A stretch of DNA of 64,000 nt from Armatimonadota bacterium (GTDB taxonomy: Bacteria > Armatimonadota > Fimbriimonadia > Fimbriimonadales > GBS-DC). A model generated the notes under the pieces. It searched no databases, had not been told where the DNA came from, and was given only the letters and a program-made list of their open reading frames with translations. The translations under genes and the position numbers were made by a program. Of the stretch, positions 25,012-50,703 are shown in pieces (the first letter of the stretch is position 1; every line of letters begins with the position of its first letter). The stretch is from the NCBI GenBank assembly GCA_037445735.1, contig JBBIJY010000004.1:1-64000 (forward strand), in the 5' to 3' direction.

Positions 25012-25032
25012 CGCGCGACGCTGACGCCACTG

Positions 25033-25127
25033 ACCGCGTTCCCTCCGCCGGTATTACCCGGATCAGGTTCCAGGGGTTTCCCCACAAACGGGGATCTCAG
25101 CCGCCTGACGGCAGCACCCCCCGCGGC
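25033..25127 (-). promoter_or_regulatory. TPP riboswitch
   Basis: Minus strand GGGGTGC..GCTGAGA..ACCC..AACCTGATCCGGGTAATACCGGCGGAGGGAA, upstream of thiC. Confidence 0.96.
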
Positions 25128-25185
25128 TGATAAGAAGTATACCCGTCAATGGGTCGGAAGGGTCGGAAGGGGTATAGTAGAGGGG

Positions 25186-46769: not shown

Positions 46770-48353
46770 TCACAGGTTGCCCTGCACGAACTCGGCGATT
46801 GCGTTTGGCGTGCTGGGGTCGAACCCCACCACATCGAGCATGCCGGCGTCGCTGGGGTCGGCGATAGTGAACGGGTTCGCCAGCATGCCGACCACCACCA
46901 GTCGGGCAGGGATACCTGTTGCCCCGCGATACATGCGCAGCGCTTCGACGGGATGCACTGCACCGTACCAGGTCTCCGAGTCGGTGTAGATGATGAAGGC
47001 GTCCGCCTCCACCCCGCGCTCGAGCGCCCAGAGCATCGGCAGGGCGCAGTCGGTTGCGCCAAACGGCAGGCTGGCAAGGTAACCCATCGCCTGCTCCAGC
47101 GGCATCTCAGGGGTCAGCTCCAGCGGAATCAGCTGGTGCGAGAAACCGACCACCTGGGCGCCCGTCTCCACATTCAGCGTGACGAGCGCGAGGGCTGCAC
47201 TGGCAGCACGCGGGGTCAGCCCAACGATGCCGCCCACATGACCCCAGCCCATCGAGCCAGAGATGTCAAGCGCCAGCACGAGCCGCTTGCCGGTGGGCAC
47301 CACATTTTCGAAGGTGGCGTAGAACGCCCTGTTGAGTGCCTTCACGATGGCGGGCACTGGCTGCCATGCACCACTGCCGCGTCCGCCGTAGCCGCGCTCA
47401 TAGGTCACCAGTGCAGTTAGTACCTGCAGCGGGTGAACCCGTGCCTGGCGCAGGCGCGCGCGGTCGTTGAGCTGCTTCACCACGAAGCGTGCGGCGTCGC
47501 TACCCTTTGTGAGCAGTCCCACGCGCGTCATCGTGGCGAGGTTGCGAATCATCGCCGTCATCGGCATCGCGGGCAGCAGCGCATCCCACACCGCCGCCGA
47601 GGTCAGCAGGTGGGTGGGCACAACCTCGCGCGGCAGCGCGTGATCACGAATCAGTCGCACCGCCTCCTGTAGCGGCAGATCGGGCTGATTCAGCCACTCG
47701 ACCGCCTCCAGGTACGCGCCGACCTCCGCAGGCAGCTCGGCTGCCACCTCGCGCGTGAGGATGTAGCGATAGAGCGCGTTGCGCCCGGCGGTGTCTGCCT
47801 TCGGGTGCGCCAGACGCAACAGGTCGCGGTGCGACCAGCCGTAGCGCTGGCGATACTTGGTGACCTGATAAGCCAGCTCGCGCAGCTCCCGTGTCTGATA
47901 CCAGCGTGCCACTGCGCGGCGCAACGCCCGCCCCCAGCCGCGCAGCTGCGTCAGGTAATCGATGAGGGTGAACAGATGGGTTCCTGTGCGCACGATGCGC
48001 GGCATCGCCTCAAGCGCGAGCGCGCGAACCTCGTCGCGCCCCGACGCTAGGGCGAGCGCCAGCACGAACAGCGCAGGATCGTTCTTGTAGGCGCGACCCT
48101 GCTCGCTGATCTCGGCAGTGCGCGCCAGCACATATGCCGGCTCGCGATAGAGCAGCTCCAGCACCGCCTTCGCGTTATCCAGCGTCAGGCGCTGCTCCGA
48201 CACATAGTAGGTTCCGCCCTCTGTGCCGAGAATAAGGAACCTGTCCAGCTGCTGGCGCGGCTCCAGCGGATAGGCAAAGCCACCCGCATAGTTGCGCACC
48301 TGCCCTGTCAGTGCCACGCGCTGCGTGCGCGAAAGAGACCCTGGGATTCGCAT
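46770..48353 (-). CDS. Ro60/Rsr TROVE-domain RNA-binding protein with vWA domain
   Basis: NYAGGF, RFLILGTEGGTYY, RTGTHLF, GWGRALRR, KYRQRYGWSHRDLLRLAHP, LDISGSM, GATDCALPM, YTDSET, MLDVVGFD; GGGGAG RBS before ATG 48353. Confidence 0.96.
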   Translation of the reverse strand: MRIPGSLSRTQRVALTGQVRNYAGGFAYPLEPRQQLDRFLILGTEGGTYYVSEQRLTLDNAKAVLELLYREPAYVLARTAEISEQGRAYKNDPALFVLALALASGRDEVRALALEAMPRIVRTGTHLFTLIDYLTQLRGWGRALRRAVARWYQTRELRELAYQVTKYRQRYGWSHRDLLRLAHPKADTAGRNALYRYILTREVAAELPAEVGAYLEAVEWLNQPDLPLQEAVRLIRDHALPREVVPTHLLTSAAVWDALLPAMPMTAMIRNLATMTRVGLLTKGSDAARFVVKQLNDRARLRQARVHPLQVLTALVTYERGYGGRGSGAWQPVPAIVKALNRAFYATFENVVPTGKRLVLALDISGSMGWGHVGGIVGLTPRAASAALALVTLNVETGAQVVGFSHQLIPLELTPEMPLEQAMGYLASLPFGATDCALPMLWALERGVEADAFIIYTDSETWYGAVHPVEALRMYRGATGIPARLVVVGMLANPFTIADPSDAGMLDVVGFDPSTPNAIAEFVQGNL

Positions 48354-48387
48354 AGTATCTACTCCCCCTGAGCTCTGGTTTTTAGAG

Positions 48388-48569
48388 CGGGAGGCGGGCG
48401 GGGGGAGGTCGAACCCCCCAACAGCCAGCAGGCTGGGCGACCGATAACCATCTCCGTCCGACCCGGCGGATAAAGAGGCGGCAGACGGGGGCAGCGCGTC
48501 CTCAACGCGATAACCATCTGCCTTCGACCCGCTGGATAAATAGGTGGAGACGGCAAACCCGCACTCCCG
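48388..48569 (-). ncRNA. Y RNA-like (Yrl-type) tRNA-mimic RNA with duplicated Ro-site-like modules
   Basis: Immediately upstream of Ro60; GGGTCGAAG and GGGTCGGAC motifs, T-arm-like GGGGGG-TTCGACCT-CCCCCC, terminal stem CGGGAG(T)GCGGG/CCCGCCTCCCG. Confidence 0.82.
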
Positions 48570-48663
48570 TTTCCCCTGCAACGGCAGAGGAACAGGCATT
48601 TTTAACGGCATCTTGCGCCAGAAAGTTCCCGCCATGCCCGCAGTGGGTATCCTTTACACCGTC

Positions 48664-50703
48664 ATGCCAGAGCCAGTGGAGTGTCATCCCTCGGTAGAAA
48701 GCGTGCTGGAGCAGCTGGAGCGGATTGCGCCGGGCGTGCCGCTGCTGGCGCTGGGTCAAACGGTGTTCTGGGACGAGCCGACCAAGAGCGGACTGCTGCT
48801 GTTGATGGCGGCGTGTGGACGCACGCGCCCCTTCTTCTTTGGCGTGCATGACACTGACTATTTCGGTCGCCTGCACACGAAGCGCCTGCCCAAAGAGAGT
48901 GTGCCCCCACCCGTCCCCGCTTCCCCAAAGCGGGAGGGTGCCGACTGGCTGCTGATGTTGCCGCATAATGATGGCTCCACGCGCGGGCTATGGTCGGCGG
49001 CGGGCGAAATCTCGTGCCTGTTCGGCAGCGAGACGGTTCCGACGCGCGCTCGCTATGCGGAGGCGGGCGCCCAGCTGGAGAAGGTCGCCCGTCGCCATCC
49101 GCTGGGGCGCGAGGCGTTTCTTGACGCGATCACCGAAGCGTGGGGCTGGCGCGGGCTGGTGGCAACCGACAGCGTGGCGCGCCCCGTGTATGAGATGTCT
49201 GTCCGCGAGGTGCTGCCCGCCCTCGACGCACTGCTCCAGTGGGGCTTCGAAAACACCCTCGAATGCCTAGCAGACCCCGACCAGCGCGATCGCGCCCGCC
49301 AGCGTGCTGACGCCATCCGTCAGCGCGTTCACGAGCTGGCGAGCCTCGCCGAATCGCTCTCGCTGGCAGACCTCTATCGCTACCTCTATCGCGATTTTCT
49401 CGTGTGGCTGATCGGCGAGGTGCCGGAGATGGTGGGCTTCACGCGCACGACGGAGCTGCTGCGCTTCGCACCTGACACCGCACACCTGCCGCGATTCCAG
49501 CTGCTGCAACGGTTTCTGGACCCGCGCACGCGCCCTATCTGTGAACGCGCCTACAACGATGCGGTTGCCGGCACCGATATCTATGCCCTGCGCGAGTTCG
49601 GCGAGGGCGCACTGCCGTTCGATCTGCTCATCCCCCGACGCGGGCGCGGCACGCTGATGCTCACCGAGCGATACCTCACCGTGCTGACGCCTGAACCCGC
49701 TGTGGTTCGGCTGGCGGAACCCGTGCAGAGCGTTGACGCGCTGGCGCGCGTGATCGCGGAGGCGTTCGGCGAGGGTGTCACGCTGATTGGCAAAGCGCTC
49801 ACTCTGGTGCCGATGCTGGCGCACGAGTTCATCTGTGTCTTCAACGAGCGTGGCTCGCCCTACTTGAGCCAGAGCGCTCGCATGCTGGATCAGATTCAGC
49901 GCGACGGCGTGGCGATAAACCTTCACCCGCTGTTGCGCCTGCGCTACGCGACATGGGACACGATGGGCGCGGAATGCATCCAGTTGCGTTTGCCAGAGCA
50001 TCTCGCGGCGGCGTTTGGCGAGCGCGAGCTGTGTTCGGAACGGTTCGCGCGGCGCTGGCGGGCGGTGGTGCAGGCGCAGCGCGAGCGGTTGCACGAGCTG
50101 CGCCGATGTCGCAGCCCACGCGAGCTGATGCGCTACCTGGCAGCGCATCTGAGCGAGGAGTGGCGCGACAAAGCCCGCGAGTATGAACAGCTGCACGCGC
50201 GATTACAGCAGGTCGGCGAGCAGGCGGCTTATCTGCGCCAGCAGGCGCACGCCCTGCACGCCGAACGCCGCGCCCTGCAGAGCGAACGCATCCGTCTGGA
50301 ACGCGAGAAAGGCGAGCTGTTCCGACAAGCCCGGCAGAACCCGTCGACGCGAGGCGCCTGCCTTGCCCAGCGCGAAGCGTGCGAGGCTCGCCTGCAAGCC
50401 CTCTCCGCACGATTGCGGGCGATCCGTCAGCAGCTCAGGGCGTTGCTGGCTCAACGGCTCCAGATCGGGCGCACGCCGGAGCTGACCGCCATCCGCGAGC
50501 GCGTGCAAACGCTGGAGTACGAAGCCGAACTGACGCGCGTGGAGCTGGTTCGAACTGCCATTCTGACCGCCGACGGGCTGGTTCACACCAGTGCCCGCCC
50601 CGCCGCATGGTGGTTCCTGCTGCTGTCGGAGCGATGGTTCCGCGCCAATATCCAGCAAACGGAACTCTATTTAGAGTGGCTTACTGGGGAGCGCAGTAAG
50701 TGA
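48664..50703 (+). CDS. Hypothetical protein with a long C-terminal coiled coil
   Basis: Long ORF with typical high-GC codon use; start uncertain (48634 or 48664). Confidence 0.75.
   Translation: MPEPVECHPSVESVLEQLERIAPGVPLLALGQTVFWDEPTKSGLLLLMAACGRTRPFFFGVHDTDYFGRLHTKRLPKESVPPPVPASPKREGADWLLMLPHNDGSTRGLWSAAGEISCLFGSETVPTRARYAEAGAQLEKVARRHPLGREAFLDAITEAWGWRGLVATDSVARPVYEMSVREVLPALDALLQWGFENTLECLADPDQRDRARQRADAIRQRVHELASLAESLSLADLYRYLYRDFLVWLIGEVPEMVGFTRTTELLRFAPDTAHLPRFQLLQRFLDPRTRPICERAYNDAVAGTDIYALREFGEGALPFDLLIPRRGRGTLMLTERYLTVLTPEPAVVRLAEPVQSVDALARVIAEAFGEGVTLIGKALTLVPMLAHEFICVFNERGSPYLSQSARMLDQIQRDGVAINLHPLLRLRYATWDTMGAECIQLRLPEHLAAAFGERELCSERFARRWRAVVQAQRERLHELRRCRSPRELMRYLAAHLSEEWRDKAREYEQLHARLQQVGEQAAYLRQQAHALHAERRALQSERIRLEREKGELFRQARQNPSTRGACLAQREACEARLQALSARLRAIRQQLRALLAQRLQIGRTPELTAIRERVQTLEYEAELTRVELVRTAILTADGLVHTSARPAAWWFLLLSERWFRANIQQTELYLEWLTGERSK

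Follow-up and report, generated by a model that had tools for sequence, protein, structure and literature searches.

The Ro60 locus

The minus strand of the window (the whole 64-kb stretch of DNA that was analysed) carries a Ro60/Rsr gene of 527 aa (46770–48353), recognized by the Pfam domains TROVE (9e-44) and vWA_Ro60 (4.7e-62), by the NCBIfam model Rsr (520 bits) and by its match to PDB entry 2nvo (Rsr; 4e-125). A Shine-Dalgarno sequence, GGGGGAG, is present at positions 48362–48368. On the same strand, 34 nt upstream of this gene, we identified an RNA element (48388–48569), whose sequence suggests a small RNA with two candidate Ro60 docking sites combined in one symmetric rod and provided with a tRNA-like handle. 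The rsr open reading frame extends upstream through this RNA (to 621 or 627 aa, depending on the listing). The host is an uncultured soil or subsurface bacterium. The public sequencing runs listed as containing this DNA are four DNA runs, all from one subsurface study, with no RNA run among them. At Rfam gathering thresholds the sole match in the whole window is a TPP riboswitch, located elsewhere.

Upstream of the element, at 48601–48630 (minus strand), there is a promoter-like pair composed of GGGAACTTT (48622–48630) and CCGTTAAA (48601–48608). Its spacing, GGAAC-N17-CGTT, is what we take to be the ECF sigma type, and no sigma-70-type promoter was found in 48150–48850. The same pair occurs at the same upstream distance in the seven other loci that carry a two-site element (see below) and in front of both Y RNA genes of the sister genome G008; within its own genome, the pattern GGAACTT-N13-16-CCGTTA has one site only, at this promoter. 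Between the presumed transcription start and the element, the minimum free energy (MFE) structure contains a 5′ leader hairpin (48571–48592, minus strand; UUCCUCUGC / CGUU / GCAGGGGAA), for which RNAalifold analysis of five genomes gave nine pairs, three of them with changes on both sides. A hairpin is also present at this position in three metagenomic loci and in G008.

Predicted structure of the element

The element is built around two direct repeats of 40–45 nt on the minus strand, which pair with each other and not with themselves. A repeat search returned a single direct repeat (48442–48481 / 48508–48547; 40 nt, 83% identity, spacing 66) and no inverted repeat at seed 7: G-U pairs in the arms leave no exact seed of that length. 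When the reverse complement of 48380–48600 was folded with RNAfold, as proposed in the sequence-only reading of this DNA, the MFE structure and the centroid structure both showed the cross-paired rod. The predicted energy was −110.5 kcal/mol, compared with a mean of −88.5 (sd 4.7) for shuffled sequences (z = −4.69), and none of the 200 shuffles folded as well. The outer helices of the rod have pair probabilities of 0.998 and 0.97. When the rod region was considered alone, cross-pairing gave −50.9 kcal/mol, as against −18.7 and −14.1 for the separately folded repeats.

The three pairings originally proposed between the repeats were all recovered on the minus strand: CCGTCTCC (48546–48553) with GGAGATGG (48448–48455), GGCAGATGG (48514–48522) with CCGTCTGCC (48480–48488), which includes one G-U pair, and ATCCAGCGGGT (48527–48537) with ATCCGCCGGGT (48461–48471), in which 10 of the 11 positions are paired and one is an A·C opposition. 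These helices form two putative Ro60-binding modules (all parts on the minus strand). The inner one (module A, 48466–48532) has the classical hairpin order: a lower stem GCGGGU, the loop CGAA (48523–48526), an upper stem GGCAGAUGG (48514–48522), a UUAUC box, the apical hairpin (48495–48509) and a return strand consisting of CCGUCUGCC (48480–48488), GCCUCUUU and AUCCGC. The outer one (module B) is split into two halves. Its 3′-strand-like half (48534–48554), which pairs with 48447–48464, comprises the upper-stem strand GCCGUCUCC (48546–48554), the pyrimidine-rich loop strand ACCUAUUU (48538–48545) and the lower-stem AUCC (48534–48537), while its 5′-strand-like half (48443–48464) consists of GGGU (48461–48464), the loop CGGAC (48456–48460), GGAGAUGG (48448–48455) and a second UUAUC box (48443–48447). 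The rod thus contains two GNCGRA-type internal loops one helical turn apart, which in the structural model would lie on opposite strands of one continuous helix of 10–11 layers and be related by a pseudo-two-fold axis.

Besides its apical hairpin, the rod bears a side hairpin (CAGCC UGCU GGCUG, 48422–48435), at the position of the YrlA V-region, a T arm with the tRNA-type T loop GGTTCGA (48400–48419) and a terminal, acceptor-like stem; the coordinates given earlier for the three hairpins (minus strand) proved to be correct. For the terminal stem, 11 bp had been claimed, but RNAfold predicts 12 bp plus a bulged U (48557–48569 with 48388–48399). Its 5′ strand is made up of CGGGAG (48564–48569), the bulged U (48563) and GCGGGU (48557–48562), and its 3′ strand of GCCCGC (48394–48399), directly after the T arm, followed by CUCCCG (48388–48393).

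Conservation of the cross-paired fold

The same layout is common to eight loci, all of them from Fimbriimonadales (Armatimonadota) or metagenomic, and each was independently predicted to fold as a cross-paired rod with the T arm and terminal stem, so that the structural core of the sequence-only reading (two Ro-site-like modules cross-paired into a pseudo-symmetric rod) is borne out. Five genome loci adjoin a Ro60 gene confirmed by tblastn; at the three metagenomic loci the next ORF starts like Ro60, as judged by eye. In the model-fitted alignment of the eight loci, 55 pairs were 95.1% paired and nine pairs showed changes on both sides, values reached by none of 500 shuffles in either case, although these controls ignore relatedness and the eight loci are closely related (mean column identity, 77%; effective sequence number of the model, 1.1). 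The three rod helices were paired in 97.2%, 100% and 98.5% of cells, and compensatory changes in the rod were limited to two pairs: 23/124 (UA4, UG3, CG1), in the upper helix of module B (97.2%), and 51/94 (CG5, AU1, GC1, other1), in the upper helix of module A (98.5%). The expected retention of the cross-copy pairing in homologues was therefore found. Self-pairing of each repeat was rejected: it was 85.5% paired and showed no compensatory change, 338 of the 500 shuffles scored as high, and the discriminating pairs 24/51, 94/123 and 96/121 were formed in one, two and none of the eight sequences, respectively. Four of the eight have a linker of 2 nt, which makes closure of the self-paired hairpin impossible there.

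Outside the rod, the terminal stem was paired in 97.7% of cells, with both-side changes at 4 of the 11 counted pairs, and the side hairpin has such changes at two of its six pairs; the side-hairpin loop of G020 and G023 is 7 nt long and anticodon-loop-like. GGTTCRA within a hairpin of 5–6 bp is present in all eight sequences. An unpaired base occurs at the position of the terminal-stem bulge in all eight two-site loci and in the G008 monomer, and its distance from the T loop along the 3′ strand is 11–13 nt, mostly 12 (11 or 13 in four of nine sequences read). Both modules keep GGGUCG-R-A-(N0-1)-GG and YUUAUCC in 8/8 sequences, including the invariant CG-R-A of module B, and the opposite loop strands vary. 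This conservation of the loops may partly reflect the short divergence among close kin.

The fitted model gave the eight loci 158–191 bits and everything else among the 32 loci searched at most 38 bits. Scanning of metagenomes for the repeat junction returned at least 118 stretches, and five of the matches listed contained the module motif. At least three true two-site elements were obtained in this way (L125, L143 and L183); L102 and L215 were chance matches. Further two-site members probably exist in metagenomes. A strict junction pattern matched three of 401 Armatimonadota genomes, and its control none. The loose pattern matched 135 of these genomes, but the reversed-pattern control did so about as often, and the result is uninformative; the tandem arrays that it matched in G355 are unrelated 100-nt repeats. 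In each two-site genome, one such element was found. A motif search of the element's own genome revealed no other convincing Y RNA module; two matches (C26 and C5) were taken as chance, each lying in a frame that is open throughout the surrounding sequence examined. A crude complement search and a regular expression for capped lower stems were too permissive, and permuted modules were tallied by MFE instead.

Relationship to known Y RNAs and to tRNA

Rsr protects the motif GNCGAAN0-1G, which Chen et al. (2014, PMC4201824) place in the 5′ strand of a helix with a bulge. The inner module (GUCGAAG) fits it exactly, while the outer one, GUCGGACG, has G for A at position 5 (GUCGGA); GNCGRA is the form found in most of the Ro60-linked modules that we compared. 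No Y RNA family was detected by Rfam in the 64-kb window at gathering thresholds (69 bits for YrlA, RF02553), nor was any Y RNA, YrlA or sbRNA match obtained for 48200–48900 at E values up to 10. ARAGORN detected no tRNA at the element, and the only tRNA-type match, to tRNA-Sec, was weak (15.2 bits, E = 5.2). The tRNA-like scaffold of the sequence-only reading stands in part. The terminal stem is acceptor-like, and the T arm immediately precedes its 3′ strand, the order found in true tRNAs, but the D stem-loop is absent (between the terminal stem and the Ro arm there are only 2–5 unpaired bases) and the element is recognized neither by the tRNA and YrlA models of Rfam nor by ARAGORN. Standard annotation will miss such an RNA, which is invisible to Rfam and tRNA finders and lies inside an over-long rsr frame.

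Much of the anatomy is shared with YrlA of S. Typhimurium and M. smegmatis (RF02553), which is likewise encoded beside rsr. There, a bulged helix bears a GNCGAA-type motif on its 5′ strand; a GGUUAYC box and a V-region hairpin come next, and the T arm, of tRNA type, stacks on an acceptor-like stem (PMC4201824; 10.1101/312249). The topology differs. YrlA starts and ends in its Ro60-binding (anticodon-like) stem, and its acceptor-like stem, situated between the T and D arms, is closed as a hairpin, which is the order of a circularly permuted tRNA. The element described here ends in the acceptor-like stem, has no D arm and contains two Ro modules; the Ro-binding helix is not made by the 5′ and 3′ ends, since these pair in the acceptor-like stem, leaving the outer arm closed and the inner module nested within it. 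The partner strand of the outer module lies on its 5′ side. In M. smegmatis, RNase P cleaves YrlA within the acceptor-like stem, whose 7 bp determine the cleavage, and the RNA is CCA-tailed; in vivo it exists as two Rsr-bound pieces, with open tRNA-like acceptor ends that resemble those of the element (Chen et al. 2014, PMC4201824). The open acceptor of cleaved YrlA, however, arises from a cut closed loop and leaves two pieces, whereas that of the element is encoded in the order of the gene, in one piece. By analogy, the two-site element may also be cleaved by RNase P.

Taken alone, the inner module (48466–48532) has the anatomy of small classical Y RNAs (YrlB/Yrn2 type; G008, L010) and of nematode stem-bulge RNAs (RF01656): a lower stem of 6 bp leads to a CGRA loop that faces a pyrimidine-rich strand, and beyond this an upper stem ends in a small apical loop. 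It differs from the small classical Y RNAs in having no free ends and in being inserted in the arm of another Y RNA. RF01656 scored above threshold on the bacterial RNAs L010 (42.8 bits) and L066 (52.8 bits) and did not match the inner module. The outer module has the topology of a second set of RNAs, the closed-arm, acceptor-ended single-site Y RNAs, which we found beside Ro60, in other lineages too, in L057 (two), L064 (three), L066 and L063, and also as G008 L261; from its sequence, it is a member of this wider set. In these RNAs, unlike the element, the cap is a loop of 3–10 nt (3–4 nt after a 5–6-bp lower stem in L064, L066, L057 and G008), and some have a full D arm and an Rfam tRNA score: the two from L057 pass the tRNA model RF00005 with 43.4 and 38.8 bits. 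No description of closed-arm single-site Y RNAs was found in the literature searched. As claimed at the outset, the two-site architecture likewise appears to be undescribed, in agreement with literature searches and with the available text of Chen et al. (2014; PMC4201824) and Wang et al. (2018; 10.1101/312249).

The sister genome G008 carries both types of module on separate RNAs. Its single-site orthologue of the element has the same type of promoter, the leader hairpin and a near-identical terminal stem, with the arm capped by a tetraloop; it is followed by its own terminator, and rsr lies on another contig, where a classical small Y RNA, encoded separately, adjoins it. This distribution loosely favours two working sites in the two-site element.

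A C2-symmetric Ro60-Yrl2 particle with two Ro60 rings has been reported for the Thermus phage phiLo; it is made of two proteins and two separate RNAs held by protein-protein contacts, and represents a minor population (PMC12135203). In our element the symmetry would be built into one RNA, as read from the sequence.

Alternative explanations

The element may well be a Y RNA that serves the neighbouring Ro60 (Rsr) as its partner, with an undescribed two-site, closed-arm, acceptor-ended layout; we consider the chances of this to be about even. Several other explanations have to be weighed against it. One, which we take seriously but think improbable, is that the element is a Y RNA for a single Ro60, in which the inner module serves as a structured cap or as an alternative docking register, and steric overlap allows one ring at a time; the second motif would then be kept since it pairs with the first and stabilizes the closed arm. 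The short loops that close the single-site arms (L064, L066, L057, G008) indicate that only a cap is structurally required, and the cap found in L076, a large hairpin, has no CGRA motif. Moreover, both sites lie within one helix of 10–11 layers, and much of the conserved sequence of each module pairs with the other. Each site has only about 5–6 bp of lower stem before the other begins, and two 60-kDa rings may therefore clash, so that binding could be 1:1. Against this, the inner module has the same UUAUC box and the same CG-R-A loop bases in all eight sequences, even though these pair with nothing in the model, and no counterpart of the separate small Y RNA of G008 was found in the two-site genomes. 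It is also conceivable, but unlikely, that the element is a precursor of two RNAs, in which the inner 67-nt module (48466–48532) is released by excision and becomes a small classical Y RNA, while the outer halves stay paired and form a two-piece tRNA-like Y RNA. The inner module alone matches the small Y RNA of G008 in every part of its anatomy, the 6-bp lower stem included, which would suit such a precursor, as would the location of the two module types in two genes in that genome and the two-piece, Rsr-bound state of M. smegmatis YrlA after RNase P cleavage (PMC4201824). The centre of the rod nevertheless lacks a conserved cleavage feature: the base opposite the A is C, U or A, and this site is fully paired in two of the eight sequences and a bulge in some others. 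No bacterial enzyme is known that would excise such an insert. Splicing-type endonucleases are lacking, according to Wang et al. (2018; 10.1101/312249).

The position of the element raises the further question of whether it is a cis-acting leader of the rsr mRNA, through which Ro60 binds its own 5′ UTR and autoregulates translation or stability, with no accumulation of free RNA. The promoter is upstream of the RNA, and no terminator was found between the end of the element and the rsr start codon, 34 nt further on, so the element might act solely as an mRNA leader. We regard this as very unlikely. In G008 the single-site orthologue is a gene of its own, provided with a promoter and a terminator, on a contig other than that of rsr; an insertion of about 110 nt between the RNA and rsr in G023 leaves the RNA undisturbed; and Y RNAs are known as a rule to be transcribed together with rsr and then processed, as in Salmonella and M. 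smegmatis (PMC4201824). That the whole structure results from chance complementarity in GC-rich DNA, or that the region encodes a small protein (an ORF of 65 aa is listed at 48359–48556), is almost certainly wrong, GC-rich as the region is. Both ideas are already contradicted by the fold energy (z = −4.69), by the recurrence of the same fold with covariation in eight loci, by one-nucleotide indels between homologues, which would shift any reading frame, and by the separation of the eight loci from all others searched with the model.

A model of the two-site RNA

The favoured reading, a two-site Y RNA partner of Ro60, contains two novelties: acceptor-like ends combined with a closed Ro60 arm, the reverse of classical YrlA, and a predicted arm cap that is itself a second complete module. 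The RNA would be about 180 nt long (about 205 nt with the leader hairpin), as estimated from its presumed ends, and would be co-transcribed with rsr from the ECF-type promoter. Its ends would pair in an acceptor-like stem that stacks on the tRNA-type T arm. In this clade the Ro60 arm would have exchanged its closing loop for the second complete Ro60-binding module, most likely because the arm was duplicated in tandem and the two copies then paired with swapped strands. We infer that both modules are working Ro60 sites, and one RNA could therefore carry up to two Ro60 rings beside its tRNA-like handle. The mature ends are probably made in the manner of tRNA, because the unpaired base of the terminal stem sits where RNase P would cut; the outer 6 bp of this stem would then represent leader-trailer pairing. 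That some tRNA-like Y RNAs might be processed like tRNAs has been suggested by Wang et al. (2018; 10.1101/312249).

A more far-reaching reading, possible but rather doubtful in our view, is that two Ro60 rings are brought together on a single RNA as a pseudo-C2 particle, that RNase P matures the tRNA-shaped handle of this RNA, to which CCA may be added, and that closed-arm, acceptor-ended Y RNAs are ancestral and YrlA a later permutation. Closed-arm Y RNAs would then be true tRNAs in which the anticodon arm turned into a site for Ro60, dimeric tRNA transcripts would not be the source of classical YrlA, and the element would represent a new architecture of the Ro60 RNP.

Y RNAs are thought to serve as one-to-one tethers and gates for Ro60. 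Two conserved predicted Ro60 sites placed one turn apart would offer a direct test of paired Ro60 action and of the purpose of a second ring, and the closed-arm, acceptor-ended Y RNAs, some of which score as tRNA, may bear on the origin and the tRNA-like processing of Y RNAs.

The two-site element upstream of the Ro60 gene

The sequence-only reading had described a minus-strand RNA element at 48388–48569 (approx. 180 nt), built of two Ro-site-like modules cross-paired into one rod on a tRNA-like scaffold. Its coordinates were all confirmed by reading the minus strand of 48300–48700. A repeat search recovered the two direct repeats at 48442–48481 and 48508–48547 (40 nt, 83% identity, spacing 66); no inverted repeat was reported at seed 7, since the complementary arms, which include G-U pairs, lack an exact seed of that length. 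Each copy follows the same pattern: a segment beginning with CCGUCU, a pyrimidine-rich stretch of 8 nt, AUCC, 2–3 nt, GGGU, CGRA, a segment ending in AGAUGG, and UUAUC.

RNAfold analysis of the reverse complement of 48380–48600 returned the proposed architecture as both the MFE and the centroid structure (−110.5 kcal/mol versus −88.5 ± 4.7 for shuffled sequences; z = −4.69, with 0/200 shuffles as good). The sole correction concerned the terminal stem, which has 12 bp and a bulged U (48563) in place of the 11 bp proposed. For the rod alone, the cross-paired form reached −50.9 kcal/mol, and the repeats folded separately −18.7 and −14.1 kcal/mol.

The inner module (48466–48532) has the classical order of 5′ strand, apical loop and 3′ strand. 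In the outer module the 3′-strand-like half comes first (48534–48554) and the 5′-strand-like half last (48443–48464), and at its far end it gives way to the tRNA-like part, composed of the UUAUC box with 7 unpaired bases, a side hairpin and a T arm, followed directly by the 3′ strand of the terminal stem. The tRNA-like scaffold was thus upheld as regards the T arm stacked on the terminal stem, but a D arm is absent.

The RNA is followed after 34 nt by the Ro60/Rsr gene (46770–48353, minus strand; Pfam TROVE and vWA_Ro60; NCBIfam Rsr, 520 bits), and the solved structure nearest to its product is D. radiodurans Rsr (2nvo). GGGGGAG located 8 nt upstream of 48353 supports the start there, as does the alignment of homologues from residue 1. 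The rsr frame remains open for approximately 94 codons upstream of this start, through the Y RNA (46770–48635, minus strand; 621 or 627 aa), so that gene prediction could extend Ro60 too far and miss the RNA; burial in an over-long rsr is likewise noted for M. smegmatis in the available part of Chen et al. (2014).

Neither a sigma-70 promoter nor a minus-strand terminator was found in 48150–48850. Upstream of the RNA there is a promoter-like pair, GGGAACTTT-N14-CCGTTAAA (48601–48630, minus strand), whose GGAAC-N17-CGTT spacing we take to be ECF-sigma-like. Under a strict pattern it occurs only once in its own genome. The pair, as GGGAACTTT...CCGTT(A/T), is conserved upstream of every Y RNA gene of the window's family, namely that of the window, seven other two-site loci, and the small rsr-linked Y RNA (L010) and single-site RNA (L261) of genome G008. 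A leader hairpin of 22 nt (48571–48592, minus strand) separates it from the terminal stem, and both pair and hairpin are present in all eight two-site loci.

The divergent gene (48664–50703, plus strand; 679 aa) matched no Pfam or NCBIfam family, and, judged by eye, the DNA encoding its N-terminal region seems to be conserved in the G003 upstream flank. The window also carries a TPP riboswitch (25022–25131, minus strand; 80.2 bits in Rfam). The sequencing runs holding this DNA were subsurface metagenomes only.

Relatives of the element

The Ro60 protein was matched in 17 of 61 related genomes, and reading of upstream regions revealed the same two-module element in four (G011, G020, G023 and G003). 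When metagenomes were scanned for the repeat junction, at least 118 stretches matched; among the matches listed, five of the 118 carried the module motif, at least three being true two-site elements (L125, L143 and L183) and two further ones chance matches. Another group picked up by a loose junction pattern (G355; L254, L255) consists of tandem repeats of approximately 100 nt with two hairpins each, which are not Y RNAs. Together with the window, the two-site set comprises eight sequences, of which L143 is almost identical to G011.

The Ro60 gene follows directly in the five genome loci (confirmed by tblastn), and in the three metagenomic loci the next ORF starts like Ro60 (by eye). The cross-paired rod was predicted for each of the eight sequences folded singly. 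The covariance model built from them (R1) scored the eight at 158–191 bits and the best other locus at 38 bits (32 loci searched); in the family's 29 genomes it found the two-site element once in each of five, plus one 69-bit match in G008.

Several loci showed peculiarities. In G003 (L008/L018/L022), of the same genus, the two-site Y RNA is intact upstream of a Ro60 gene lying in two frames (residues 1–213 and 214–526; six stops if read through), which points to a sequencing error or else to a pseudogene of recent origin. In G023, approximately 110 nt with internally complementary ends, possibly a small mobile insert, separate the Y RNA from rsr (L004:~1385–1500). In G028 (L005/L040), whose Ro60 is 74–75% identical, the contig ends 102 nt before rsr; the upstream 3′ part differs, with the side hairpin present and a canonical T loop absent, and the R1 match is limited to positions 115–177 (13.9 bits), the remainder falling beyond the contig end.

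Cross-pairing versus self-pairing of the repeats

The two possible structures were tested on the alignment of all eight sequences fitted to R1 (A4), which, being model-fitted, leans towards the model's structure. The cross-paired structure (55 pairs) had 95.1% of cells paired (0/500 shuffles as high; mean 91.5%) and nine pairs changed on both sides (0/500), whereas the self-paired repeats (25 pairs) had 85.5% (338/500 shuffles as high) and no pair changed on both sides; the eight sequences are closely related (mean column identity 77%, effective sequence number 1.1), which the shuffles do not take into account. Covariation falls mostly in the terminal stem (4/11 pairs), the leader hairpin (3/9 pairs) and the side hairpin.

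When the 3′ partners were slid by 1 to 3 columns, pairing of the cross-paired structure fell to 39–55%. The three rod helices were 97.2%, 100% and 98.5% paired, and compensatory changes were seen at pairs 23/124 (UA in four sequences, UG in three, CG in one) and 51/94 (CG in five, AU in one, GC in one, unpaired in one). Self-pairing failed exactly where the models differ: it was possible at 24/51 in one of the eight sequences, at 23/52 in three, at 94/123 in two and at 96/121 in none. Moreover, the gap between AUCC and GGGU in repeat 1 is only 2 nt in four of the eight, which makes hairpin closure impossible there. The covariation thus agrees with the claim that the copies pair with each other, and the two-module cross-paired element beside Ro60 was borne out by fold, relatives and covariation.

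The rod centre is one continuous helix of 10–11 layers, in which AUCC-A-(G)CGGGU lies opposite AUCC(G)C-N-GGGU, and the CGRA loops, one on each strand, are therefore separated by about one helical turn and arranged about a pseudo-dyad. Its irregularity varies among the eight sequences (a single A.C in three, A.A in one, an A-U pair in two and one bulged base in two). Both modules keep GGGUCG-R-A-(N0-1)-GG and YUUAUCC in 8/8, the remainder of the loop strands being variable, and the T-arm GGTTCRA is likewise kept in all. GNCGAAN0-1G is the motif protected by Rsr in footprinting, according to the available part of Chen et al. (2014). Ro60-linked modules from other phyla often have R at motif position 5 as well.

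Single-site and closed-arm neighbours

In a rough tally based on MFE folds of 400-nt windows around 93 distinct 5′-strand modules from all loci compared, the partner of the upper stem was downstream in 60, as in classical Y RNAs, and upstream in 19 (a closed, i.e. capped, Ro arm), eight of the latter being outer modules of two-site elements; 12 modules were unpaired and two mixed. On inspection, members of Armatimonadota and Chloroflexota, as well as an alphaproteobacterial MAG, proved to carry closed-arm Y RNAs with a single site, located next to Ro60 or close to it. These RNAs end in an acceptor-like stem and have the Ro arm capped by a small loop, an order that matches tRNA and is opposite to that of classical YrlA. 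Two copies in a Chthonomonas MAG (L057:1105–1227 and 1288–1413) have a full acceptor stem, D arm and T arm, and the place of the "anticodon arm" is taken by the Ro module, which is closed; the Rfam tRNA model scored the two copies at 43.4 and 38.8 bits (threshold 29), and ARAGORN found no tRNA in them. A Fimbriimonadaceae MAG carries three copies of decreasing tRNA likeness (L064:935–1035, 1040–1175 and 1258–1385), and single copies occur in a Roseiflexaceae MAG (L066:~1228–1340) and a Rhodobacterales MAG (L063:~570–720).

In a Fimbriimonas MAG (L076:1190–1345) the closed Ro arm is capped by a hairpin of approximately 115 nt without the CGRA motif, a nested layout resembling the two-site element, with the inner part decayed or different. 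In a Promineifilaceae MAG (L042:1–1170), seven tRNA genes and one tRNA-Sec-like match are interleaved with Y RNA modules upstream of Ro60.

The most telling relative is the 118-nt single-site closed-arm RNA of G008 (L261:1501–1618), from the same family as the window. It has the promoter type of the two-site element and a leader hairpin, and its terminal stem is nearly identical (CGGGAG and GCGGGU separated by a single bulged base). A UGAU tetraloop caps the Ro arm; the T arm comes next, then a run of U and, further on, a terminator. This RNA and rsr are on separate contigs, and rsr in G008 is accompanied by a simple Y RNA of classical form, which is preceded by a promoter of the same type. 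The module types are thus carried by two RNAs in G008 and by one in the two-site genomes. A pattern search of the window's own genome revealed no further convincing Ro module, two more matches lying in open frames.

Within the eight, repeat 1 copies are closer to one another (mean identity 85.8%) than to repeat 2 (77.0%), and the duplication is therefore older than their divergence. In a simple scenario, a closed arm would be duplicated in tandem, the copies would pair with swapped strands, and the loops would then shorten.

Relation to known Y RNAs and possible mode of action

Classical YrlA is described, in the available parts of Wang et al. (2018) and Chen et al. (2014), as a circularly permuted tRNA whose acceptor stem is closed and which ends in the Ro60-binding anticodon-like stem; "Permut" itself does not occur in the available text of the latter. 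The two-site RNA is connected the other way round, has no D arm, carries a second Ro module and was not matched by the Rfam YrlA model, and for these reasons we do not file it as YrlA, although gene linkage and motif identify it as a Y RNA. In the closed-arm forms found here, the open acceptor ends are encoded as such in the gene. The supplementary table of Chen et al. (2014; four of five supplementary files) contains one Armatimonadetes YrlA, from Fimbriimonas ginsengisoli. The Thermus phage Ro60 dimer seen by cryo-EM contains, according to the part available (PMC12135203), two separate RNAs and is held by protein contacts; here, in contrast, both Ro-type motifs are on one RNA. In line with the suggestion that the architecture was undescribed, a search of the text of the literature found no published Y RNA in which the Ro arm is closed or a second Ro site is present.

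A stable RNA would be made by trimming a transcript that starts at the ECF-like promoter and includes rsr. In the eight two-site sequences and the G008 monomer, the 3′ strand was measured between the end of the 7-nt T loop and the base facing the bulge; this stretch is 12 nt long in five of the nine, 11 in three and 13 in one. In tRNA the same count is 12 (5-bp T stem plus 7-bp acceptor stem), which would place the bulge, a U in six of the eight two-site sequences, at the RNase P cut site. The outer 6 bp of the terminal stem would then correspond to a leader-trailer duplex.

Ro60 would bind at both modules, and we rate the chance that one stable RNA bears two working Ro60 sites as about even. 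The leading rival is binding at 1:1, the inner module then being a cap. Smaller odds attach to excision of the inner module from the element, and to a purely cis-acting leader lying 34 nt before rsr. The comparisons show a conserved, structured, rsr-linked RNA element that displays two Ro-type motifs in fixed geometry. It is a real Y RNA of a new form: acceptor-ended, closed-arm and two-site.
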